A stretch of 33,326 bases of DNA from a virus. Lineage: Duplodnaviria > Heunggongvirae > Uroviricota > Caudoviricetes. Positions within the stretch are counted from its first letter, which is position 1. Each line of letters begins with the position of its first letter. The DNA is taken from the IMG/VR virus record IMGVR_UViG_2541047900_000007. One strand, written 5' to 3'. The translations under genes were made by a program, and so were the position numbers. The notes below the pieces were generated by a model. It worked only from the letters and a program-made list of their open reading frames with translations, made no database searches and was not told the origin of the DNA. Below are positions 2,388-33,326 of this stretch, piece after piece.

Positions 2388-2418
2388 GGGGGCAGTATTG
2401 CCCCCGTGCGGGAACGCT

Positions 2419-2450
2419 GATATTAAAGGCGTTTAAGAAGCTCAGTGGGA
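2419..2450 (-). promoter_or_regulatory. candidate late promoter upstream of the W-like baseplate gene (class B motif)
   Basis: Plus strand GATATTAAAGGCGTTTAAGAAG; abuts the V-like gene stop; ATACTGCC element downstream on minus strand. Confidence 0.45.
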
Positions 2451-3038
2451 GTGGTGGCTGGAGTTTTCGCCATCAGACAGCATACTGCCCGTGGCATGGG
2501 CATTCCCTTTAATCTCGATATTGCCATGGATGGTCGCGGTAACACCTTTACCACCAGAACCCGCCATGCCTCCTTCGTAAATCAGCTTTCCCCTGACACG
2601 CAGATCTCCGGTAAGTTCGGTTTCCGGTGCGTCAATCGTGGCTTTCTGTGTTTTCAATACCACATCAGCACCACACTCAATGACAATATGCTCAATGCCG
2701 CCCCGGATGGTCAGAGTGTGCGTCTTCCGGTTGTAGCTGTACTCTGCACCATCAGCAAACCGGGTTCCCCGGATATTTTTGTCACTGAACGGTGGTTTAT
2801 CGACGTCTGAATACACCGCGCCCAGAATAACACCATCCTCGCCGTTGGCATCGAGCAGCACCTCAACCTGCTCCCCCACGTCAGGGAGCCAGTAATCTTT
2901 GTTATCCTGGGTATTACGCTGCAGCACGTTAAGCCAGTTTGTGCGCAGGTTATCGCATTCAGGCAGACGAACGCGGGCCTGAACCCTGTCGGCATCAACG
3001 GCACTGACCGTACCGACCTGACGAGTGACACCAGTCAT
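2442..3038 (-). CDS. baseplate assembly/spike protein V-like (Mu gp45)
   Basis: 198-aa ORF with Gly-rich, His-rich C-terminus (SSHHSH), overlaps the D-like gene by 4 nt. Confidence 0.65.
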   Translation of the reverse strand: MTGVTRQVGTVSAVDADRVQARVRLPECDNLRTNWLNVLQRNTQDNKDYWLPDVGEQVEVLLDANGEDGVILGAVYSDVDKPPFSDKNIRGTRFADGAEYSYNRKTHTLTIRGGIEHIVIECGADVVLKTQKATIDAPETELTGDLRVRGKLIYEGGMAGSGGKGVTATIHGNIEIKGNAHATGSMLSDGENSSHHSH

Positions 3039-4392: not shown

Positions 4393-5273
4393 ACACTCCT
4401 CGTCAGTATTCTGGCGGCCATTGCACTTAATCCCGGAGACATGCGGTTGAATGCTGTGCCGGCGGCGTTAAGCTGCCCGGAAACGGTATCCAGAGCACCT
4501 GCAATATTTCTTTTGTCCACACCACTCAGCGCAGACTGTGCCTGCTGTACATACGTGGCTGCTTCGCTGGCTGTTCTGGCCAGACTGATGGCATCGGGCA
4601 TGGATTCAGAGAGTGCGTTAAACGCCGGAACACTTTTCCCCAGAGCCCCGGAGATATTACCCAGTCCGCTCATCAGCCCCGGCACACGGGTCAGTGCGAC
4701 AACGGGGTTATCCTTCATTTTCTGTGTCACCCGAACGGCGCTGATAGTGGTCTGGAGTACAGACTGCGCCTGTTTCGCATAGTTGACGCCGTTGCGGATG
4801 AACTGCGCCACCCCTGAAGGTGAAGGAATGGCACCGGAGACCGCCCCGACACCCGGGAGCTTCGTGCGTATTGCCGGTGGTTGCAGAGGATTTTTCGGAT
4901 CACCGGTGTATTCCCGGAGAGACACGGTGGCACTGACAGCCAGCACGTTACCGGTGCTGTCTGTCTGCTCGCTGGTTGCGGTCACATCGGTAATCACGAA
5001 CCAGCCACGATAGTCACCGTTGCCGAAGACCAGCGCCAGTGCCTGATGGGCTTTCATGGCTGTTCGCAGTCTCGCCAGCTCCACATCGGGTACACAATAA
5101 TGCTGATGGAAAACCAGAGTTATCTGGATTTCGTCCAGCCTGTCGCCGACGAACTGCAGGCCAGGCTTACCCCCGATGCGGGCATGCTCCGCATAATCGA
5201 CGCCGAACGTGGCCTCGAAGCCGTCCCAGTAGGTAATCAGCTCAAACTCAATATCACCCAGTACGGCAAACAT
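4389..5273 (-). CDS. tail protein with gpU-like N-terminal domain (Mu N / DNA circulation protein family)
   Basis: 294-aa ORF immediately downstream of tape measure; N-terminal pattern IGGKPGLQFVGD...GWFVI resembles gpU/DNA-circulation N-domain. Confidence 0.5.
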   Translation of the reverse strand: MFAVLGDIEFELITYWDGFEATFGVDYAEHARIGGKPGLQFVGDRLDEIQITLVFHQHYCVPDVELARLRTAMKAHQALALVFGNGDYRGWFVITDVTATSEQTDSTGNVLAVSATVSLREYTGDPKNPLQPPAIRTKLPGVGAVSGAIPSPSGVAQFIRNGVNYAKQAQSVLQTTISAVRVTQKMKDNPVVALTRVPGLMSGLGNISGALGKSVPAFNALSESMPDAISLARTASEAATYVQQAQSALSGVDKRNIAGALDTVSGQLNAAGTAFNRMSPGLSAMAARILTRSV

Positions 5274-5899
5274 CAGCGGTACTCCTTACGTTGTTTCTGA
5301 GCCAGCAGACGCTCCAGCATTTTTTCCAGCTCATGCAGGCTCATATTCAGGGCGCCAGTCAGTCCGGCAGGCGCTGTGGTTTCCCTGCCATTGAGGAAAA
5401 ACTGAGGATTAAAGCTGACCTGGATACCACCAGACGTTCCACCGCCGGTTGCAGCTGCACCACGGCCTGAATATCCGGCAGCCAGGATTTCAGGCGAGGG
5501 GATACGGGGAACATCCGGTGTCATCTCATTTGCCAGACGTTGCCCTGGTAAAATCGATGCCCGGGTGGAGAGCGGAATAGCGGGCATGGAAGACAAACTA
5601 TTGATTACGGCTCCGATCGCATTTTTAGCAGACGACATAAACCCATTGATATCGGGCAACGGCATACTGAAGCGAACACCTGAAGTGTTATCCCGTATTT
5701 CTGGCCCCTGAATGCTCACGGGCATTTTGGGGAGCAGTTCACTGGCCATTCGCTGCCCGGCCAGAGCTGCAAGCGGAGTGGTCCGCTGCAGGCCAATGGC
5801 GGCCCCCTGCGCGATATTGTCACCAAAGCCCATAAACACGCGGCTCGGCGAATGAATGCCCAGCTTTTCGCTGAACCAGCCACTGATGCTGTCACCCAT
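5273..5899 (-). CDS. tape measure protein C-terminal fragment (frame stays open upstream to about 6148 but has no start codon before ATG 5899)
   Basis: Begins MGDSISGWF, the same peptide that ends each upstream tape-measure repeat unit; same frame as the ancestral tape measure after removing a 145-bp partial repeat. Confidence 0.5.
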   Translation of the reverse strand: MGDSISGWFSEKLGIHSPSRVFMGFGDNIAQGAAIGLQRTTPLAALAGQRMASELLPKMPVSIQGPEIRDNTSGVRFSMPLPDINGFMSSAKNAIGAVINSLSSMPAIPLSTRASILPGQRLANEMTPDVPRIPSPEILAAGYSGRGAAATGGGTSGGIQVSFNPQFFLNGRETTAPAGLTGALNMSLHELEKMLERLLAQKQRKEYR

Positions 5900-6555
5900 T
5901 CCGGTTACACTGGATTTGAGCGACTCCCATTTGTTTTTGATACCGTTAATCAGACCGTCGACAAGATGGCCACCGAAGTCGGTGAACTTTGCCGGCAGAT
6001 CAACACCAAGATATTTCAGCGCAGCTGCAAAGGCTTTATAGAGCAGACCTGCCGGCGACCAGTTAATCAGCAGCTTACCAGTTCCCGCGATACCGCCGTT
6101 AAAGGCTTCCTGAATGTCAGCCCAGCACTGTTTAAACCAGCTACTGATGGCCGAAATATTTCAGCGCAGCCGCAAAGGCTTTATAGAGCAGGCCTGCCGG
6201 CGACCAGTTAATCAGCAACTTACCAGTTCCCGCGATACCGCCGTTAAAGGCTTCCTGAATGTCAGCCCAGCACTGTTTAAACCAGCTACTGATGCTGTCA
6301 CCCATTCCGGTTACACTGGATTTGAGCGACCCCCATTTGTTTTTGATACCGTTAATCAGACCGTCGATAAGATGGCCACCGAAGTCGGTGAACTTTGCCG
6401 GCAGAGCAACGCCGAAATATTTCAGCGCAGCCGCAAAGGCTTTATAGAGCAGGCCTGCCGGCGACCAGTTAATCAGCAACTTACCAATTCCCACAATGCC
6501 GCCGTTAAAGGCTTCCTGAATGTCTGCCCAGCGCTGTTTAAACCAGCCACTGACT
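5873..6555. repeat. imperfect tandem repeat inside the tape measure gene: 261-bp units at 5889-6149 and 6295-6555 with a 145-bp partial unit at 6150-6294
   Basis: Direct alignment of plus-strand text; the same ~87-aa peptide (SWFKQ.WADIQEAFNGG...KYFG...GMGDSIS) recurs in the translation. Confidence 0.85.
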
Positions 6556-8369
6556 GCCCCCCAGTTGCGGTAGATAAGGTAAGCTGCTGCCGCGACAGCG
6601 GTGATAACGAGACCGATGGGATTCATCATCAGCGCACGTCCAATCCAGAGAACAGCACGTCCGGCGAGCATAATTCCGCGAACCAGCCCCCCGGAGAGCA
6701 CGCCACTCAGTGTTCTGGCTCCTTTGGCGACGGCGCTAAATCCGGTCACCAGCCAGCGGAGCTTACCGCCTTGCCCCAGTGCGAGCGACAGACGAAGCCA
6801 GTTGGCCCGAAGTAAAACAGCATTTTTCCAGACACTTACAAAGGGGGAAATAAGGAGATTCAGCCCCAGTTTGAGACCAACAGTCGCTATCTTAATCGCA
6901 AGGAGCGCACTGATGAGCTTAAAAGCCCCACTGACAAATTGCGGGTGAGTCGCTACCCAGTGTTTTGCCCCCTGAATGAGTGGAAGCAGTTCCTGAGTCA
7001 GAGAAATAAAAGATGGAGCTAATTGATCGCCCAGCGTAATTGCCAGATCACGACTGCTGACCATAAGTGCTTTAGTGGCTTCAAGGGGAGATTTCAGCCG
7101 CTGATCATAAGCACTGGCAAGCAAATCGTTATCCGCAGCCCTGAGAGCACCGGCACGGATCTCTCGATATCTGTCCATGTTGGCCAGCATCGGGCGGATA
7201 AATGCCATGACCTGCATATCCGCGAACATATCGCCCAGACCAAAGTTTTTCGCCAGAGCCTGAAGTGCCTCATCTCTTGCCGTATCATTCTTTATTTTCA
7301 TGGCTGATTTGAAGCCGGCCAGCGCTTCGGGGCTTTTGGCATTGAGGTAACGTTCTATAACACTCAACATCCCTTCAATCGGAGAGATCCCCGCAGCTTT
7401 ATAACTCGCAATAGATCCCTGCAAATCAATACCCAGATCAGCAAACTGTTTCTGAGTATCGCGGGCAAAAATTTTGGTAAGAAAGTTTTTAAAATTATTG
7501 GCTGCTTCGTCGGTGGAACCTGCACCGATTTTTGCTATCTGGAGACTGGCCCCGATTTCAGCAACAGCCTCTTTTCCACTGGCAATACCCGCCATCATTG
7601 GGGCCAGGGACTGCATCCACTTGACCTGATCCGGGATTTCAAATGACCCCTGGTCACCGGCATAAGCCATAATATTCTGAACGGCACCAAAATCTCTGGC
7701 CGCACCTTTCAGGGAGTTTTGCCAGACTGCGGCCACTTTTGCCCAGTCCTGAGCAGACGTGCGTGTTGCCGTTGCCGCGCGGGCAATATCCGGCATCAGA
7801 AAACCGATATCTGACACATTATCAATATTGTCGCTGATGAGTGAACCCACCGCCTCCTGCAGCTCATCCTGATACTGATTGTATTTAAGCGCCCAGCCTT
7901 TTATCTGTCCGGCAAGTGCATCCCGCGTTTTATTGTCATATTTTGCGGTGATCGACATATCAATCATTTTGTCCTGAAAAGACATGGACTGCTGAACGGC
8001 AGGGGAAACCGTATGATAAACAGTCTGTGCCATGCCATACGCTTCAATCCCCTGACCATACAGCGCCATGCGGTTAGCTTTCAGCGCATCACTGGTAGCG
8101 GATGCCGCTGACAGACGGCGCTGCTGGCGCTCAATTTGCTCCATGGTGCGGCTTACCCGCAGCAGCTCGCTGTTGAGATGCTGCATCCGGGAAGAACCCA
8201 GTTGACCATAACGTTCTGTTGCACGGGTTAAAGCGTTCTGACGTTCCTGCAGGCGGCGTGAGGTATCGCTCAGGGAATCAAGCGCACGGCGGGTACCGCT
8301 CATTGCAGAACGGAATGTGCTACCAATCATCCCGCCGATAACAACGCCGACTGAAAACTGTCCCGACAT
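6141..8369 (-). CDS. tail tape measure protein, N-terminal 742 aa (terminated by a frameshift at a repeat junction)
   Basis: Long ORF after the tail chaperone; GGAGGT ribosome-binding site before ATG 8369; coiled-coil and hydrophobic stretches typical of tape measure; ends HQ* exactly at the partial-repeat junction. Confidence 0.8.
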   Translation of the reverse strand: MSGQFSVGVVIGGMIGSTFRSAMSGTRRALDSLSDTSRRLQERQNALTRATERYGQLGSSRMQHLNSELLRVSRTMEQIERQQRRLSAASATSDALKANRMALYGQGIEAYGMAQTVYHTVSPAVQQSMSFQDKMIDMSITAKYDNKTRDALAGQIKGWALKYNQYQDELQEAVGSLISDNIDNVSDIGFLMPDIARAATATRTSAQDWAKVAAVWQNSLKGAARDFGAVQNIMAYAGDQGSFEIPDQVKWMQSLAPMMAGIASGKEAVAEIGASLQIAKIGAGSTDEAANNFKNFLTKIFARDTQKQFADLGIDLQGSIASYKAAGISPIEGMLSVIERYLNAKSPEALAGFKSAMKIKNDTARDEALQALAKNFGLGDMFADMQVMAFIRPMLANMDRYREIRAGALRAADNDLLASAYDQRLKSPLEATKALMVSSRDLAITLGDQLAPSFISLTQELLPLIQGAKHWVATHPQFVSGAFKLISALLAIKIATVGLKLGLNLLISPFVSVWKNAVLLRANWLRLSLALGQGGKLRWLVTGFSAVAKGARTLSGVLSGGLVRGIMLAGRAVLWIGRALMMNPIGLVITAVAAAAYLIYRNWGAVSGWFKQRWADIQEAFNGGIVGIGKLLINWSPAGLLYKAFAAALKYFGVALPAKFTDFGGHLIDGLINGIKNKWGSLKSSVTGMGDSISSWFKQCWADIQEAFNGGIAGTGKLLINWSPAGLLYKAFAAALKYFGHQ

Positions 8370-8444: not shown

Positions 8445-8862
8445 CTATGATTTGTCGCCGTACTCGCTTTTTATTTGCTCTTCAGCCTGCTCCAGCCACA
8501 TCTCCAGATCGTCAGTATCGAGGGCATCAATCTCCCCCGGCTGAAACCGGAACCATCTCGCCAGCAGCCCCTGCGCCTGCGTCAGCGCCCTGGTTGCTCT
8601 CACCCATCCCCGTGATGAGCTGAAATCGTTTCTGTAACTGCAGGTAATCAGCCAGATCCATATTGTCGAGATCTTCCGGGAGAAGACCAGTACTGCGGGC
8701 AATCAGCGGTTCGTCCCAGTCTGCCGGGTTTTTGCTGATTTTGCGCACCTGCTTCAGGTCTTTTACCGTCAGGCGTTTCAGTTCAACCAGCTCAATTCTG
8801 GTGCCTGCAGCAGTGGTGAAGGGATAAGACAATTTAAAAGTATCGGATGGGGTCTGTGACAT
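8445..8862 (-). CDS. predicted frameshift-extended chaperone (E+E'-like fusion; +1 or -2 shift near 8534-8540)
   Basis: Second ORF 8445-8702 overlaps the 3' end of the chaperone ORF in the +1 frame; G5 run CCGGGGGAG lies just before the chaperone stop; conserved chaperone/tape-measure frameshift arrangement. Confidence 0.4.
8527..8862 (-). CDS. tail assembly chaperone, P2 gpE-like
   Basis: 111-aa ORF between tube and tape measure genes; CAGGAG ribosome-binding site; gpE-like LTVKDLKQ...DLADYLQLQKRF pattern. Confidence 0.7.
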   Translation of the reverse strand: MSQTPSDTFKLSYPFTTAAGTRIELVELKRLTVKDLKQVRKISKNPADWDEPLIARSTGLLPEDLDNMDLADYLQLQKRFQLITGMGESNQGADAGAGAAGEMVPVSAGGD

Positions 8863-8913
8863 GATTGTGCTCCTGTGTAAGTTCAGGGCAGTATGTCGGG
8901 AGAAGCGCGTGAC

Positions 8914-8942
8914 GGATATTAAAGGAGATTAAGAAGAAGGGG
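8914..8942 (-). promoter_or_regulatory. candidate late promoter upstream of the tail chaperone/tape measure genes (class B motif)
   Basis: Plus strand GATATTAAAGGAGATTAAGAAG, near-identical to the site at 2419-2440; ATACTGCC element downstream on minus strand. Confidence 0.45.
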
Positions 8943-8952
8943 CCGGAGCCCC
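8939..8952 (-). terminator. weak hairpin downstream of the 93-aa ORF
   Basis: GGGGC-CGGA-GCCCC 8 nt after the stop at 8960, followed on minus strand by TTCTTCTTAATCTCC. Confidence 0.3.
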
Positions 8953-8959
8953 TGTGATG

Positions 8960-9241
8960 TCAGCAAGTGCGAAACCCCTTGCAGTTACGCAGGAAAGCGA
9001 TGAGAAGCGTCTTTCCCTCAGATTTGCCGATGCCGGAGAACCAGTGGTCGGGAGGCTCCCATGCTTCAATCAAATCCGCCAGTTTGCGGGCCTTTGAACG
9101 TGTGCAGTCAATCGGGTCATTGGTTTTACGGGTATTAAAAAGGGTTTCCACCCCCGGAATATCAAGGAGGGTAAACCACGTACCATTTGACATGCCCAGT
9201 GCCGCACATCGTCCTCCTTTATCCGTCAGTTCAACACTCAC
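8960..9241 (-). CDS. hypothetical protein between tube and chaperone genes
   Basis: 93-aa ORF starting 2 nt after the tube gene stop; followed by a hairpin at 8939-8952. Confidence 0.35.
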   Translation of the reverse strand: MSVELTDKGGRCAALGMSNGTWFTLLDIPGVETLFNTRKTNDPIDCTRSKARKLADLIEAWEPPDHWFSGIGKSEGKTLLIAFLRNCKGFRTC

Positions 9242-13660: not shown

Positions 13661-14776
13661 TTACAGGCAGCGTGCGACAGCAGCCTCATAGCTGATGCCT
13701 TCTTTTTTGGACAGGGCCACTGCTTTCTGATGCAGGGCCAGACGCTCAGGATCGGCTTCCGCAAACTCTGCCACATCCACCTTCACCGTGTCGCCGACAC
13801 GCTCTTTTGTGGCCTGTTCGGCGAAATTCATCACCGGCTCCCCGTCGGAGAGCAATGAACGAAAGGCGGTGGCCAGCGGTGTGCGGCTTTCCCCCTCAGC
13901 AAACTCCACCGGCTTGTCGCCACCGGCGACGGCATCCAGCAGGGCAACCACCACGGAGGAGGCGCGGGGAGCCAGACGGCCCTCTGCGACCAGTTTTTCT
14001 GCAAAGGCCACATTGTCCTTATGCAGTTGCTCCTGTCTGACCTGTGCATCACGCGCATCGCGATCAGCAGCCTGCTGCTTCAGGCGGCGGTTCTCCTCCT
14101 GAAGGGCTTCAATCTCTTCTTTTGTCATCGATGATTCCTCGTTACTTGCGGAAGACGGCCCCGGGCCTGTCTCACTGAATTGTGCACCTGCTGCATCCTG
14201 CGACAGTGTGTCGCGGTACGCCTCTTCGCGCAGACTGTTGAGCTGCCATTCCGGCAGGACTTTTTCTGCCTCGTCCAGACTGAAGCGGGCGATCAGAAAA
14301 TCGCGCAGCTTTCCCCACAGGGAGGCATTCGTGATGGCCTGCCAGTCGGCGAACTCCACCACACCTTCTTCCTGCTCACTGAAGGACACCTGTTTCAGCC
14401 CCTTGACGGAAGGTGGCTGTGCCCCGAGAAAGCCCACATGGCGAAGGTAGAGCACGCCGGGCTTCGGATTGGACGGTGAATCCGGGAGGTAGAAAGAGGC
14501 GGACACTTTTTTGAATCGTCCGTCGGTGACCATCTCAGCAAACTGCGGGTCCAGCTGGGCAGGCTCTGCCATCAGATCGACGCCGCTGAGCGACAGGGCT
14601 TTCACCCAGCCCCACGCCGGGTCTTCCGTTCTGGGATGACCAATCACGAGTGGTGCTTCATGGACGGACGGGTCATAGGCTTTCACGCAGGCGGCAAGAT
14701 CGTCTGGCGTGAACGGCAGTTTTTTGCCGTGCATATCGGTATGAGTACCGGCTTTAAAAATGTGAATGGCTGACAT
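13661..14776 (-). CDS. head maturation protease/scaffold, Mu I-like (gp32)
   Basis: 371-aa ORF with acidic coiled-coil C-terminal half, preceded by a 210-bp intergenic region holding a conserved promoter-like motif. Confidence 0.7.
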   Translation of the reverse strand: MSAIHIFKAGTHTDMHGKKLPFTPDDLAACVKAYDPSVHEAPLVIGHPRTEDPAWGWVKALSLSGVDLMAEPAQLDPQFAEMVTDGRFKKVSASFYLPDSPSNPKPGVLYLRHVGFLGAQPPSVKGLKQVSFSEQEEGVVEFADWQAITNASLWGKLRDFLIARFSLDEAEKVLPEWQLNSLREEAYRDTLSQDAAGAQFSETGPGPSSASNEESSMTKEEIEALQEENRRLKQQAADRDARDAQVRQEQLHKDNVAFAEKLVAEGRLAPRASSVVVALLDAVAGGDKPVEFAEGESRTPLATAFRSLLSDGEPVMNFAEQATKERVGDTVKVDVAEFAEADPERLALHQKAVALSKKEGISYEAAVARCL

Positions 14777-14800: not shown

Positions 14801-14862
14801 GGAGACAGTTTGTGAGAAATGCAGGCCCGGCGATTTTAATCTGCTTTAGAAAACATCAGGGG
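14801..14862 (-). promoter_or_regulatory. candidate late promoter upstream of the I-like head gene (class A motif)
   Basis: Minus strand reads TTAAAATC-N7-CCTGCATTTCTCA-N3-CTGTCTCC in the 210-bp G/I intergenic region. Confidence 0.5.
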
Positions 14863-14911
14863 AGAAGGACAGGGAAAGCAATGCGGTGAACCGGAGGCGG
14901 TTATAAAACAG

Positions 14912-14925
14912 AGGCTGTAAAGCCT
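14912..14925 (-). terminator. weak hairpin plus U-tract downstream of the G-like gene
   Basis: Minus strand AGGCT-TTAC-AGCCT followed by CTGTTTTATAA; 5-bp stem only. Confidence 0.3.
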
Positions 14926-14990
14926 TTATAAAGGTAATACAGCCCCTCATTCGCTGGCAATGATAAATCACCCGCCTGAAGAGAGAAAAC

Positions 14991-20198: not shown

Positions 20199-20524
20199 TA
20201 TTGACCTCCGGTATTGCGGTACTGCTGTACCACTTCCAGTTTGTTATAAAGCGCGTCCAGTTTGGCCTCAATGACTGTCTGGCCACGGATATAATCCTCT
20301 CGACGGACATAATTCAGCGGTAAATCCGCTTTAAATCGCATAAATTCTTTTTCCAGCTCGCCCCAGTTGGAGGCGGATTGTTGCAGGGCCTGTTCAAGGG
20401 AGGCGAATCGTGCCGCCTGGCGTTCTTCTGTTTTACTGAACAACCATTTGGCGAGCCCTCCCACAAACCCCATGAAGGTGAGCAGAAAACTCACCACCGT
20501 CCAGAATTCAACCTGCAGTGTCAT
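20198..20524 (-). CDS. small membrane protein of the lysis cassette (possible lysis regulator)
   Basis: 108-aa ORF with one N-terminal hydrophobic helix, ATGA overlap with the spanin gene. Confidence 0.45.
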   Translation of the reverse strand: MTLQVEFWTVVSFLLTFMGFVGGLAKWLFSKTEERQAARFASLEQALQQSASNWGELEKEFMRFKADLPLNYVRREDYIRGQTVIEAKLDALYNKLEVVQQYRNTGGQ

Positions 20525-21897: not shown

Positions 21898-22248
21898 TTA
21901 AAGCCCCATCGCAACAGCCAGGCAGACCGCTGCAACAATCAGTGCACGGCGGATTAACGCAGCAGAAAACACCAGGTGAAGGCCGGTCTGTACCGGGAAA
22001 CGCCCTTCAGCCATCAGCCTGTCGTCATGTTTCAGGTACTGACCGGGACGGGCTTTGGGGAAGAGCGAACGGTCAAGCCAGTAACCCAGCACTGCTGCCA
22101 GCGTGATGAGTGCCAGCTTGTAGATCACAACAGGCAGCTGCTGTGGTGAGACCAGAGCGATGGCGCCCAGCAACAGCACTGAGGTCAGCAGCCAGCCGCT
22201 GAGGCGAGGTTTTTTAACAGGGGGAATGAATTTTTTCAGGTTTTTCAT
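21898..22248 (-). CDS. holin-like membrane protein
   Basis: Start moved to ATG 22248 (MKNLKKF...) preceded by AGGAGA; three hydrophobic segments; first gene of lysis cassette. Confidence 0.5.
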   Translation of the reverse strand: MKNLKKFIPPVKKPRLSGWLLTSVLLLGAIALVSPQQLPVVIYKLALITLAAVLGYWLDRSLFPKARPGQYLKHDDRLMAEGRFPVQTGLHLVFSAALIRRALIVAAVCLAVAMGL

Positions 22249-22267
22249 GTGTGTCTCCTTATCTGGT

Positions 22268-22327
22268 GGAGACAGCATCACAAATACAGGGCGCGAAGGA
22301 TTTTAAAGCGCGTTAAGAGAGCCGGGG
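22268..22327 (-). promoter_or_regulatory. candidate late promoter upstream of the lysis operon (class A motif)
   Basis: Minus strand reads TTAAAATC-N7-CCTGTATTTGTGA-N3-CTGTCTCC; same architecture and spacing as the site upstream of the I-like gene. Confidence 0.5.
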
Positions 22328-28317: not shown

Positions 28318-29484
28318 ATGCTGGTACTGAAGCAGCAACTGAAAGAGGCCCGTATTCCACAGGCGGTGGTGGCGAGAGCTGTCGATGTTTCTGAGGCCAC
28401 GCTGGCCCAGATTGTGAATCATAACGCGTGGCCCCGCACCAGCCCCGGAGAAGTGCGCCGGCGTCTTGCGTCCTGGCTGGAAAGTCAGGGGATTGATACA
28501 ACGAAGAGTTTTGATGCTGTACAGGGCGCGGCCACGCCCCGTACAGCGGGTACCACAGATAAAACGAGCCTCAGTGAGGAAGAGAATATGTTACTCAAAA
28601 AACAGGTGTTATTTCCAGCAACCAAAAAAGCGTTTGGTCTTTTCCGTGACCCGTTCGCCGACGAAGCCATGCAGGGTTCTGATGATGTGTTCACCACCCC
28701 GGACATTCGCTACGTGCGTGAGGCGTTGTACCAGACAGCCCGTCATGGTGGGTTTATGGCCGTCATCGGTGAGTCCGGTGCGGGTAAATCCACGCTGCGC
28801 CGCGACCTGACTGAACGTATCAACCGCGAGAATGCGCCGGTAATTGTTATCGAGCCATACATCATCGCTATGGAAGACAACGATGTGAAAGGGAAAACCC
28901 TGAAGGCAGCAGCGATTGCCGAAGCCATTATCAGTACCATCGCACCACTGGAAAGCATCAGACGCAGTCAGGACGCCCGCTTTCGCCAGTTGCATCGCGT
29001 CCTGAAAGACAGCAGCCAGGCGGGGTTCAGCCACGTTCTGGTGATTGAGGAGGCCCACAGTCTGCCCATTCCGACACTGAAACACCTCAAACGCTTTTTT
29101 GAGCTGGAGTCCGGTTTCAAAAAACTGCTGTCCATCGTGCTGATTGGCCAGCCGGAACTGGCGACAAAACTGTCTGAACGCAATATGGAAGTCCGTGAAG
29201 TCGTTCAGCGCTGTGAGGTGGTCGAACTTCTGCCTCTGGACAATAACCTTGAAGAATTTCTGACGTTCAAACTGCAACGGGCCGGTAAACAACTGACGGA
29301 CATTATGGACGCCAGCGCAGTGGATGCCATACGTGCCCGCCTGAGCAATCCGGGAAGTCATCGTAAAAATATGGTCAGCCTGCTGTATCCGCTGGCCGTC
29401 AGTAACCTGGTGATAGCCGCCATGAATCTGGCCGCTGAAATCGGGGTTCCACAGGTCAATGCTGACGTTGTCAAAGGGGTTTAA
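28318..29484 (+). CDS. DNA transposition AAA+ ATPase, MuB-like
   Basis: Walker A GESGAGKST and Walker B-like VLVIEEAH; N-terminal HTH; start at ATG 28318 after GGAGGG, 10 nt past the transposase stop. Confidence 0.75.
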   Translation: MLVLKQQLKEARIPQAVVARAVDVSEATLAQIVNHNAWPRTSPGEVRRRLASWLESQGIDTTKSFDAVQGAATPRTAGTTDKTSLSEEENMLLKKQVLFPATKKAFGLFRDPFADEAMQGSDDVFTTPDIRYVREALYQTARHGGFMAVIGESGAGKSTLRRDLTERINRENAPVIVIEPYIIAMEDNDVKGKTLKAAAIAEAIISTIAPLESIRRSQDARFRQLHRVLKDSSQAGFSHVLVIEEAHSLPIPTLKHLKRFFELESGFKKLLSIVLIGQPELATKLSERNMEVREVVQRCEVVELLPLDNNLEEFLTFKLQRAGKQLTDIMDASAVDAIRARLSNPGSHRKNMVSLLYPLAVSNLVIAAMNLAAEIGVPQVNADVVKGV

Positions 29485-29486
29485 TA

Positions 29487-29756
29487 ATGAAATCCACCAC
29501 AGTTATCAGCCAGCAGATTAACAAAGTGCAGTCAGCCATTATGGCACTTAAGGCGACGAATACGGATATACAGAGCATCACCATCAGGGGCCATAAACCT
29601 GTCATCCGAGTTTCCCGGAGTGCGCATTGCATACACATGCTTGAACAGGGGAAAGCCAGTTATCTGTATACCGGTCATGACCACAGGGGTCATTTCCGTC
29701 AGGGCGTTTTCGAACTGCACGGCTGTCGCGTCGTGTGGCCGGAATCTTTGTGGTAA
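29487..29756 (+). CDS. hypothetical early protein
   Basis: 89-aa ORF starting 2 nt after the B-like gene stop. Confidence 0.45.
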   Translation: MKSTTVISQQINKVQSAIMALKATNTDIQSITIRGHKPVIRVSRSAHCIHMLEQGKASYLYTGHDHRGHFRQGVFELHGCRVVWPESLW

Positions 29757-32515: not shown

Positions 32516-32965
32516 ATGCAGAAAAAACGCCTGATACAGCTTATCCATATTGCCCGTAATGAACTGGGTATGGATGAAGACACCTACCGCCAGATGTTAC
32601 AGGGGCTGACCGGTAAAGCCTCAACCAAAGGAATGGATACCACACAACTAAACTGCGTGCTGGAATCCATGAAAAAGAAAGGCTTTCGCGTTAAACCAGC
32701 CAGAAAAGCCAGCTCCGGTTTACCGCTGGATAACCATCCGCAGTCCAGGAAAATTCGTGCGCTATGGCTTGAAATGGCTGCTGCCGGCATTGTTCGTGAC
32801 CGTTCAGAAAATGCATTAGCGAGGTGGATCAAGCGGGAAACGGGCATCAGCGCCCTGCGCTGGCTCAGTACTGAACAGGCAAGCAGTGTTATTGAGAAAC
32901 TGAAGAAGTGGCAGCGCAGAGCTGCGGGAGTCAAACATGAGCGACCTGAATCAGTTTCGAAGTAA
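32516..32965 (+). CDS. gemA: GemA-like protein (Mu gp16 family)
   Basis: 149-aa ORF immediately upstream of the Mor-like gene, as in Mu. Confidence 0.65.
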   Translation: MQKKRLIQLIHIARNELGMDEDTYRQMLQGLTGKASTKGMDTTQLNCVLESMKKKGFRVKPARKASSGLPLDNHPQSRKIRALWLEMAAAGIVRDRSENALARWIKRETGISALRWLSTEQASSVIEKLKKWQRRAAGVKHERPESVSK

Positions 32966-33326
32966 GGGGCCGGAACTCCTGGTGGAACTGGCACAGCATA
33001 CCTCTGAGACCGTTCGCGAGATTATTGATATTGAGCCCGAAGTTGCCGACCAGATTGGTCAGGCCGTCGCGAACCGAATGATGCAGGTCTGGGGCGGGCA
33101 AAACGTTTATTTCCCGATGGGCATGGTATGGAAGGTCAGTCAGCGCGACCGGGAAATCTTCAGGGAGTTTAACGGACGCAACCACCACGAACTGGCCCGC
33201 AAATTTGGTGTTTCGCTTCAGTGGGTCTACAGCGTGGTTAAGCGGGTAAGAAAAGAAGAACTGGATCGGATGCAGGGCAAGCTATTTGCTGATGAACCCG
33301 ATGCAGATACGGAGAAAAAAGAGTAA
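32937..33326 (+). CDS. mor: Mor-like middle-operon transcription activator (Mor/C family)
   Basis: 129-aa ORF with WGGQNVYFP and FNGRNHHELARKFGVSLQWVY motifs characteristic of the Mor/C family; stop is the last codon of the window. Confidence 0.7.
   Translation: MSDLNQFRSKGPELLVELAQHTSETVREIIDIEPEVADQIGQAVANRMMQVWGGQNVYFPMGMVWKVSQRDREIFREFNGRNHHELARKFGVSLQWVYSVVKRVRKEELDRMQGKLFADEPDADTEKKE

Follow-up and report, generated by a model that had tools for sequence, protein, structure and literature searches.

The best-described promoters of the kind considered here are those of phage Mu. At the Mor-dependent promoter Pm, the Mor box is made up of two 5-bp inverted repeats around a G/C-rich 6-bp spacer and spans −51 to −36; a −10 hexamer is present, with neither a −35 hexamer nor an extended −10 (PMC4390567, PMC4287176). 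The four Mu late promoters each combine a −10 with an imperfect 16-bp dyad, centred at −43.5, and lack a usable −35 (PMC2582627). A 22-base motif found twice among the tail genes of the prophage analysed here is best read as an activator-binding box built like that of Pm, and would thus be a further example of a switch type already known, not a class of its own. It is very probable that the two motif sites are phage-activator-dependent promoters, two of four that split the late (lysis, head, and tail) genes into transcription units. A sequence-only reading of this DNA had proposed late promoters for tail genes, a view that the architecture of the sites, the presence of an activator gene, and deep conservation now make very likely to be correct.

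The window, that is, the whole stretch of 33,326 nucleotides that was analysed, is a BcepMu-like transposable prophage of E. coli. Over its left 12 kb it shares 98.8% identity with Escherichia phage PhiKM, of the genus Bcepmuvirus, and 87% with a record named Klebsiella phage KP12. The lysis, head, and tail genes lie on the minus strand, between about 22.3 and 0.4 kb. The early genes, which occupy the plus strand from about 25 kb, encode the transposase, a B-like protein, gam, gemA and, last, an activator of the Mor/C family. The minus-strand genes of most concern here are a gp25/W-like baseplate wedge gene (2040–2387, ATG at 2387; Pfam GPW_gp25, 4.8e-12), preceded by a baseplate V-like ORF (2442–3038), and a tail assembly chaperone gene (8527–8862, ATG at 8862; Pfam Phage_TAC_7, 5.5e-21), preceded by a 93-aa ORF (8960–9241). 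Farther upstream on the same strand are the head protease/scaffold gene I (ATG at 14776) and the holin gene (ATG at 22248; Pfam Holin_2-3, 7.6e-42). The prophage family is a common one, which adds to the interest of the result: the V–W segment is found in 636 of 5,426 complete E. coli genomes, ST131 strains among them, and relatives are known from Klebsiella, Salmonella, Pectobacterium, Photorhabdus, Burkholderia, Ralstonia, Pseudomonas, and Pasteurella.

The repeated motif, GATATTAAAGG(C/A)G(T/A)TTAAGAAG, is recovered by pattern search on the plus strand at 2419–2440, exactly where it had first been noticed. The second copy is equally real but had been placed one nucleotide too low, at 8914–8935; its actual position is 8915–8936. 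Both copies lie upstream of the starts of minus-strand tail genes, as the earlier reading held, with the end of the box 31 nt from the ATG of W and 52 nt from that of the chaperone gene, and each is followed on the minus strand by ATACTGCC, exactly 20 nt downstream at both sites. The pattern GATATTAAAGGMGWTTAAGAAG has just two matches in the window, both on the plus strand, even when three mismatches are allowed; with the same tolerance, 100 dinucleotide-preserving shuffles yielded none. A repeat finder independently returned the same pair of sites (family D4, 91% identity). The composite GGCAGTAT-N20-GATATTAAAGG, which reads box-N20-ATACTGCC on the opposite strand, likewise has exactly two matches, 2391–2429 and 8887–8925, with identical spacing. 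Both sites fall in minus-strand intergenic gaps, at 2388–2441 between the V-like and W-like ORFs and at 8863–8959 between the 93-aa ORF and the tail chaperone gene. Because the two copies agree in the box (20/22) and in ATACTGCC (8/8), while the spacer that intervenes matches at only 4 of 19 positions, two separate blocks must be under constraint. The low spacer identity between box and hexamer also rules out a duplication relic as the origin of the pair.

The anatomy of the sites becomes apparent when they are read on the minus strand. The W site then runs CTT-CTTAAACGCCTTTAAT-ATC, 19 nt, AATACT, GCCCCC, ATG. It contains a 16-bp dyad box, CTTAA-ACGCCT-TTAAT (2422–2437), in which two 5-bp inverted repeats flank a G/C-rich 6-bp spacer, and whose predicted position is −50 to −35. 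The putative −10 hexamer, AATACT (2394–2399), follows the dyad by 22 bp and is not accompanied by a −35 hexamer. The chaperone site reads CTT-CTTAATCTCCTTTAAT-ATC, 19 nt, CATACT, GCCCTGA, and a 21-nt leader with AGGAG before the ATG. Here the 16-bp dyad box, CTTAA-TCTCCT-TTAAT, located by pattern search and by comparison with relatives, is at 8918–8933 and the hexamer CATACT at 8890–8895; transcription is predicted to start near 8883, giving an mRNA leader of about 21 nt with a candidate Shine-Dalgarno sequence, AGGAG, at 8870–8874. The center of the dyad would lie at −42.5 if transcription begins 7 nt after the hexamer and at −43.5 if it begins 8 nt after it. A sigma-70 scan detects no −35/−10 pair at the W or chaperone site, and an extended −10 is absent as well: the bases before the hexamers are GC at W and GA at the chaperone site, not TG. 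For comparison, Mu Pm, as read from the Mu genome, is AGTAA-AGCCGG-TTAAT, 22 nt, TATCCT, so that its layout and spacing are the same as those of the prophage sites; the half-sites of the prophage match those of Pm at 4/5 and 5/5 positions.

A relaxed pattern, TTAA-N6-TTAAWATC, adds two minus-strand intergenic sites, at 22299–22316 upstream of the holin gene and at 14832–14849 upstream of gene I. The former belongs to a putative promoter at 22274–22320 (TCTCTTAACGCGCTTTAAAATC, 19 nt, GATGCT), detected with both the relaxed pattern and a weight matrix, and the latter to one at 14807–14853 (TTTTCTAAAGCAGATTAAAATC, 19 nt, CAAACT), the top matrix hit at 28.2 bits. The spacing to GATGCT and CAAACT is that observed at the W and chaperone sites, so that the distance from dyad to hexamer is 22 bp at all four. 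Starts are predicted at about 22267 for the holin promoter and 14800 for that of gene I. All are intergenic, on the minus strand, and co-oriented with the holin, gene I, chaperone, and W genes that they precede. The matrix was trained solely on non-enterobacterial sites, from Burkholderia, Ralstonia, Pseudomonas, and Pasteurella, and it ranks the four window sites first to fourth, at 20.5–28.2 bits. Below them come the near-palindromic box at the holin (lys) site read on its other strand (14.6 bits) and then a hit of 10.9 bits. In 30 mononucleotide shuffles the best score averaged 9.0, and one of the 30 reached 20.8. Two candidates for a fifth site, at 29467–29488 and 20317–20338, lie inside ORFs, are not followed by a proper hexamer, and were set aside as chance matches.

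The gene that ends the early operon (32937–33326, plus strand) encodes a transcription activator of the Mor/C family, matching Pfam PF08765 (Mor) at 1.3e-43 over positions 1–107 of 107. Members of this family were recognized by a length of about 100–150 aa, a β-strand linker, and a C-terminal helix-turn-helix. The prophage protein, of 129 aa, is 30% identical to Mu Mor and 37% identical to Mu C over the aligned parts. Its linker, GGQNVYFPMG, aligns with GGGQVYIPRG of Mor (GGxxVYxPxG), and FNGRNHHELARKFGVS aligns with the helix-turn-helix of both Mor and C; the matches in the PDB are likewise Mor (1rr7, 9l0y) and C (9l0x, 9vw8). It is the sole Mor/C homologue in the window, just as each relative has a single one. 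By analogy with Mu, we infer that this protein binds the four boxes.

Conservation was assessed in seven complete or near-complete relatives (KP12, BcepMu, phiE255, Ralstonia YO107_2, Pseudomonas Komp_PAO1_1, Pasteurella AFS-2018a, and the Salmonella STM4196-4219 remnant) and in 80 genome loci retrieved by means of a W-protein alignment; the figures given here are for 89 loci. Of the distinct regions upstream of W, 77 of 82 contain the box, as do 52 of 59 upstream of the chaperone gene. A hexamer with A at its second and T at its sixth position follows at the fixed offset at 75 of the 77 W sites and 50 of the 52 chaperone sites. The mean information content per position is 1.2–1.3 bits in the box, where the TAA and TTAA positions approach 2 bits, 0.3–0.5 bits in the spacer, and about 1.0 bit in the hexamer. 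In each complete relative, four strong sites followed by a proper hexamer occupy the same four places in the gene order and share the orientation of the late genes. BcepMu and phiE255 are an exception, with three strong sites and a degenerate chaperone box (TTAA-N6-CTGA). Since the box is degenerate in these two phages and absent upstream of the chaperone gene in the Salmonella remnant, the chaperone promoter is evidently not universal. Homologues of the gene I site are present in KP12, BcepMu, phiE255, and the Ralstonia, Komp, and Pasteurella phages, and in the Pasteurella relative the box is a perfect palindrome, TTTAAAGCGCTTTAAA. Variants with TTTCG or TTTAG as the second half-site are found in Lysobacter. 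Occurrence at homologous positions in relatives had been set beforehand as a test, and the motif is indeed kept at such positions in Enterobacterales, Burkholderiales, Pseudomonas, and Pasteurella; the promoter reading is therefore supported.

It might be argued that the box is a real regulatory site but one that is bound by another phage regulator or by a host nucleoid protein, or that it serves as a repressor operator. The A/T-rich ends of the box do resemble many nucleoid-protein sites. Nevertheless, the layout is that of the experimentally defined Mor box at Mu Pm, down to the 22-bp distance to the −10 (PMC4287176). A Mor homologue is encoded in every box-bearing genome that was fetched in full, and even the Salmonella remnant has retained its Mor gene together with two boxes. 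Fixed spacing to a −10 that lacks a −35 is, moreover, a hallmark of an activator site and not of a repressor operator. Recognition of the box by something other than the Mor/C-family protein thus seems very unlikely.

Another reading would make the motif a terminator or RNA-level element, such as a U-rich terminator tail or an RNA processing site, that marks the ends of tail operons and has no promoter function. The chaperone site lends this idea some substance. A terminator scan finds there, at 8938–8953 on the minus strand, a G+C-rich hairpin, AGGGGCTCCGGCCCCT, followed directly by a T-run, TCTTCTTAAT (folding energy −12.8 kcal/mol, z −3.4). This element, read from 8953 to 8938, has the form of an intrinsic terminator, and termination is predicted; it precedes the chaperone box, and its T-rich tail extends into the left half of the dyad. 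A hairpin and T-run ahead of the chaperone box are also found in KP12 and in the Ralstonia, BcepMu, Photorhabdus, and Pseudomonas relatives, and the −10 regions, too, are accompanied by hairpins. At the W site, however, there is no hairpin upstream of the box, the stop codon of V being 1 nt away, and at some Pseudomonas and Pasteurella sites the box is kept without an adjacent terminator. As RNA, the dyad would give an A/U-rich stem without a loop, and hence no stable hairpin. Rfam, searched at gathering thresholds, has no match anywhere in the window. Finally, a terminator has no use for a hexamer with conserved A2 and T6 at a fixed distance. A purely RNA-level function for the motif is hardly credible, and activator-dependent promoters remain the preferred reading.

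The sequence-only reading had assigned the W and chaperone sites to a "class B" that shares its core with a "class A", and had suggested that the two are subfamilies of late promoters with possibly different timing or strength. Class A evidently corresponds to the holin (22299–22320) and gene I (14832–14853) sites. The shared core is borne out, since all four sites consist of TTAA-N6-TTAA, 23 nt, and a NANNNT hexamer. With one architecture at all four sites and a single Mor/C homologue, the idea of two subfamilies lacks support.

There is some reason to pair the W and chaperone sites. Their boxes agree at 20 of 22 positions, as against 13–15 for the other pairs in the window. They have ATACTGCC in common, while the lys and gene I sites share CTGTCTCC after the hexamer. 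TTAATAT is found at W in Enterobacterales, Burkholderia, and Ralstonia, where lys and I have TTAAAAG. A precedent for differential action within one set of promoters can be found in Mu, where the action of C at Pmom differs from that at the remaining late promoters (PMC4461284). Yet class A itself is loose (the lys and I boxes agree at 15 of 22 positions), and the pairing dissolves outside the immediate relatives. In Pseudomonas Komp_PAO1_1 the W and chaperone boxes are identical 22-mers from which each of the other two differs at one position, and in Pasteurella AFS-2018a nearly the same box is present at all four promoters. Pectobacterium has a chaperone box of the TTTAAAATC type and, at W, a box with TTTAATATT. 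Because these two Pectobacterium boxes differ in the way that the classes do, the W–chaperone pairing is specific to the E. coli/Klebsiella clade. Some of the features that define class B also have other identities: its CTTCTT flank at the chaperone site is the tail of the intrinsic terminator at 8938–8953, and ATACTGCC covers the −10 hexamer and the beginning of the discriminator, besides being one arm of a hairpin considered below. Functionally distinct classes are therefore unlikely, given one activator gene and one geometry across the four promoters. We conclude that the four sites belong to a single promoter family that varies from site to site, with class B as a close pair within it. A difference in strength among the promoters is possible, judging by the hexamers: (A/C)ATACT at the class B sites matches TATAAT at 4 of 6 positions, and GATGCT and CAAACT match it at 3 of 6.

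The simplest model for the late region is a two-tier cascade in which the early operon would give rise to one Mor-like activator, which would then turn on the four late promoters directly. The Mor/C-family protein, made at the end of the early operon, would bind the dyad at about −50 to −35 and replace the missing −35 contact, recruiting host sigma-70 RNA polymerase as Mor does at Mu Pm. On the minus strand, the parts of each promoter would be the dyad (NTTAA and TTAAN around a G/C-rich hexanucleotide), an unconstrained spacer of 22 bp, and a weak −10, NANNNT, with no −35. The 8915–8936 site would restart transcription just past the intrinsic terminator located behind the sheath and tube genes and the 93-aa ORF. 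This promoter, for which the chaperone gene is the first gene downstream, would produce a normal leadered mRNA for the chaperone, tape-measure, and baseplate-hub genes. The 2419–2440 site would be an internal promoter that boosts expression of W, J, I, and the fibre genes. The sites had been taken to head two tail operons; this description suits the chaperone site, which follows a terminator, but not the W site, which is an internal promoter with no terminator before it.

Start-site maps are available for an uninduced lysogen of a related prophage. The dRNA-seq tables for B. cenocepacia J2315, which carries BcepMu, list no start sites at the predicted late promoters (PMC4603805, supplement 3). 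Because this is what is expected of activator-dependent promoters, the missing start sites are uninformative. The full texts searched on BcepMu, Mor, and promoters, a set without the BcepMu genome paper (PubMed 15184022), contain no description of these promoters, and the motif may have been described earlier. If the promoter reading is correct, the rule NTTAA-N6-TTAAN, 22 bp, −10 would allow simple annotation of late transcription units in these prophages, and the sites would supply naturally varying Mor boxes for studies of the activation complexes of Mor and C, which were solved recently.

A further feature of the W promoter is its proximity to the start codon. In the window the ATG of W lies 6 nt after the −10 hexamer and is not preceded by a Shine-Dalgarno sequence. 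The W ATG is 34–37 nt past the second TTAA, and hence 6–8 nt past the hexamer, in every one of the 77 relatives with a conserved box. A Shine-Dalgarno-like sequence is absent from 72 of the 77 W sites and present at 50 of the 52 chaperone sites, where the length of the leader is variable. It is thus likely, though not certain, that the W mRNA is leaderless, with a 5′ end at about 2387 and a start at or within 1–2 nt of the AUG. The usual 7-nt distance from hexamer to start, together with the preference for a purine, would place +1 on the A of the AUG. The exact numbering of Mu Pm, with its dyad at −51 to −36, would shift +1 one base downstream, onto the U. In 20 of the 77 relatives the ATG is 7–8 nt, not 6 nt, after the hexamer, and a leader of 1–2 nt may remain.

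The same region of the W site contains an inverted repeat, GGGGGCA-ATAC-TGCCCCC (2388–2405, minus strand), with the hexamer in the loop and a 3′ arm that ends at the start codon. The corresponding RNA is predicted to fold with −15.1 kcal/mol (z −3.0). The center of the hexamer is in a hairpin loop at 65 of 77 distinct W sites (mean minimum free energy −10.1 kcal/mol), compared with 16 of 52 chaperone sites (−2.1). The W stems vary with lineage and yet stay complementary: GGGGGC/GCCCCC, GGGAC/GTCCC, GAGGGC/GCCCTC, CCCTG/CAGGG, and GCGGC/GCCGC are all observed. A single consensus structure for the W hairpin was considered and rejected, since the stem register shifts by 1–2 nt between lineages; for the same reason each site was folded individually and compared with shuffles, in place of a count of covarying pairs.

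At the chaperone promoter a different pairing is predicted. UGCCCUG (8884–8890), which comprises the last base of the hexamer and the discriminator and lies upstream of the predicted start, may pair with the Shine-Dalgarno region, CAGGAGCA (8868–8875), forming a structure that spans 8868–8890 on the minus strand (fold z −3.25). Among distinct chaperone sites, 34 of 38 show pairing of the Shine-Dalgarno region with the 13 nt of hexamer and discriminator, with a mean ddG of −7.9 versus −3.5 for shuffled arms. The complementary arms are again lineage-specific, for example AAACTCCTTAATG/CATTAAGGAGTTT in Pasteurella and CTGCTCCTGAA/TTCAGGAGCAG in a Dickeya oryzae locus. Similar pairings are seen elsewhere in the window, GTCTCC/GGAGAC at the lys site and one with z −4.2 at the I site; these were read by eye, as the automatic choice of start codon was misled by ATG or GTG inside the hexamers.

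Because the 5′ arms lie upstream of the predicted start, the hairpins could form only in RNA that reads through from farther upstream. Folding thus suggests a further role for the promoter sequence, which we put forward tentatively and with more doubt than confidence. The −10 and discriminator may act as a hairpin arm in read-through RNA only, such that the first gene of each late unit would be translated from the RNA of its own promoter and would be silent in read-through transcripts. The other arm would be the Shine-Dalgarno region at the chaperone promoter and at lys and I of the enteric and Pasteurella phages. At W, the hairpin would end at the AUG, without a Shine-Dalgarno sequence, and the RNA from the gene's own promoter would be leaderless. 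Such an arrangement, if it exists, would give inherent protection to a phage whose random insertions fall in transcribed host DNA, and a leaderless W mRNA combined with promoter-embedded hairpins would link the choice of transcription start to translation.

Two described cases provide points of comparison for these predictions. In IS10/Tn10 and other insertion sequences, the ribosome-binding site can pair with a complementary stretch that precedes the point where the element's own transcription begins, and only RNA that reads in from outside forms the inhibitory hairpin; such fold-back inhibition, which protects IS10 from outside transcription, was reportedly described by Davis, Simons and Kleckner in 1985. 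The predicted pairing of the chaperone hexamer and discriminator with the Shine-Dalgarno region has the same layout. Unlike the IS10 case, it concerns internal promoters of a phage late region rather than the end of an insertion sequence, and it is a prediction from folding and from complementary arms that vary with lineage. The cI message of phage λ transcribed from PRM is a leaderless phage mRNA. W resembles it in having its start codon where transcription should begin and in the absence of a Shine-Dalgarno sequence, the W start being a prediction that allows for a leader of 1–2 nt in 20 of 77 relatives.

The closest comparison is with Mu. In both phages the early operon ends with a gene for an activator of the Mor/C family, adjacent to gemA, and at Mu Pm, as at the chaperone site of the prophage, the box overlaps or abuts a terminator belonging to the transcript before it. 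The Pm box and the BcepMu gene I box, CGTAAAGCCGATTAAA, agree at 13 of 16 positions. The prophage activator is only about 30% identical to Mor. The Pm box scores less than 12 bits with the matrix of the prophage family, the resemblance being one of layout and half-sites rather than near-identity. Among the Mu late promoters, two are at the same places in the gene order as those of the prophage, before the lysis genes and before gene I, and the −10 regions are similar to the point that CAAACTG is found both at Mu PI and in the prophage, with TAGACTGCC at Mu Plys and ATACTGCC as the prophage counterpart. The remaining two differ: in Mu the tail promoter PP precedes gene P and the fourth serves mom, whereas in the prophage the chaperone and gp25-like genes are served and there is no mom promoter. 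The boxes that respond to C in Mu have TTAT-N6-ATAA, with ATAA 24 nt from the hexamer, in place of TTAA at 23 nt in the prophage. A further difference would be one of regulatory depth. In Mu, Mor acts at a single middle promoter to produce C, which in turn activates the late genes, giving three tiers; the prophage apparently manages with two.

The mechanical ORF call for the holin gene (21898-22281, minus strand) begins at a GTG at 22281 that falls within the lys promoter (22274-22320, minus strand). The true start is almost certainly the ATG at 22248, which lies 7 nt past the Shine-Dalgarno sequence AAGGAG and is also the start annotated in the close Escherichia phage relative PhiKM, where the gene is 351 nt long. 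Within 22253-22273 on the minus strand, the six bases immediately 3' of the lys promoter hexamer, GTCTCC, are complementary to the holin Shine-Dalgarno region AAGGAGAC, and this pairing is common to the KP12 record. The Pasteurella phage has a longer counterpart, with 15 bp of stem (z -7.4) linking the -10 region to the Shine-Dalgarno sequence ahead of its first lysis gene.

The KP12 record itself (OM835952.1, "Klebsiella phage KP12 clone KP12_2") is classified in Vequintavirinae. Its content is that of a BcepMu-like transposable prophage, with transposase, gemA and Mor, and the sequence probably comes from a prophage of the host, not from the lytic phage.

The tape-measure gene of the window spans 5273-8369 on the minus strand and is read as two ORFs, 6141-8369 and 5273-5899. 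It contains a direct repeat of 279 nt (5874-6152 and 6280-6558; 93% identity, separation 406 nt), which corresponds to a duplication of approximately residues 598-695 of the KP12 homologue. A sequencing gap in PhiKM coincides with the location of this repeat. The 279-nt duplication shifts the reading frame, and the split ORFs reflect either disruption of the gene or an error in assembly.

Salmonella Infantis SARB27 carries, in the STM4196-4219 region (12063-16470 of L007, the Salmonella sequence compared), a remnant of this phage family that has no head genes. The remnant retains the Mor gene (STM4219) and the tail genes, as well as the W promoter and the box on the lys side. A gtrABC O-antigen glucosylation operon together with a small hypothetical ORF has been inserted between baseplate gene V and the W promoter. 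The box of the chaperone promoter is missing, and the terminator hairpin of that site is still present.

The stretch that separates gene G from the gene I promoter holds, at 14900-14950 on the minus strand, a long imperfect palindrome, GGGGCTGTATTACCTTTATAAAGGCTTTACAGCCTC, followed by CTGTTTTAT. The palindrome folds with an energy of -19.6 kcal/mol (z -5.4), and its core TTTATAAAGGCTTTAC recurs in BcepMu, phiE255 and Ralstonia phage YO107_2. The lysis/terminase/portal unit probably has its terminator here.

The start of head gene I in phages of Burkholderia and Ralstonia is arranged like that of W, with a G/C-rich inverted repeat around the hexamer: CGCCC-GATGAT-GGGCG in BcepMu (L003, 18808-18852) and GCCGCC-CAACAT-GGCGGC in the Ralstonia phage (L004, 18063-18125). 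The distance from hexamer to annotated gene I ATG is 6-7 nt in these phages, and their gene I mRNA may be leaderless too, in contrast to the predicted leader of about 24 nt for gene I of the E. coli phage.
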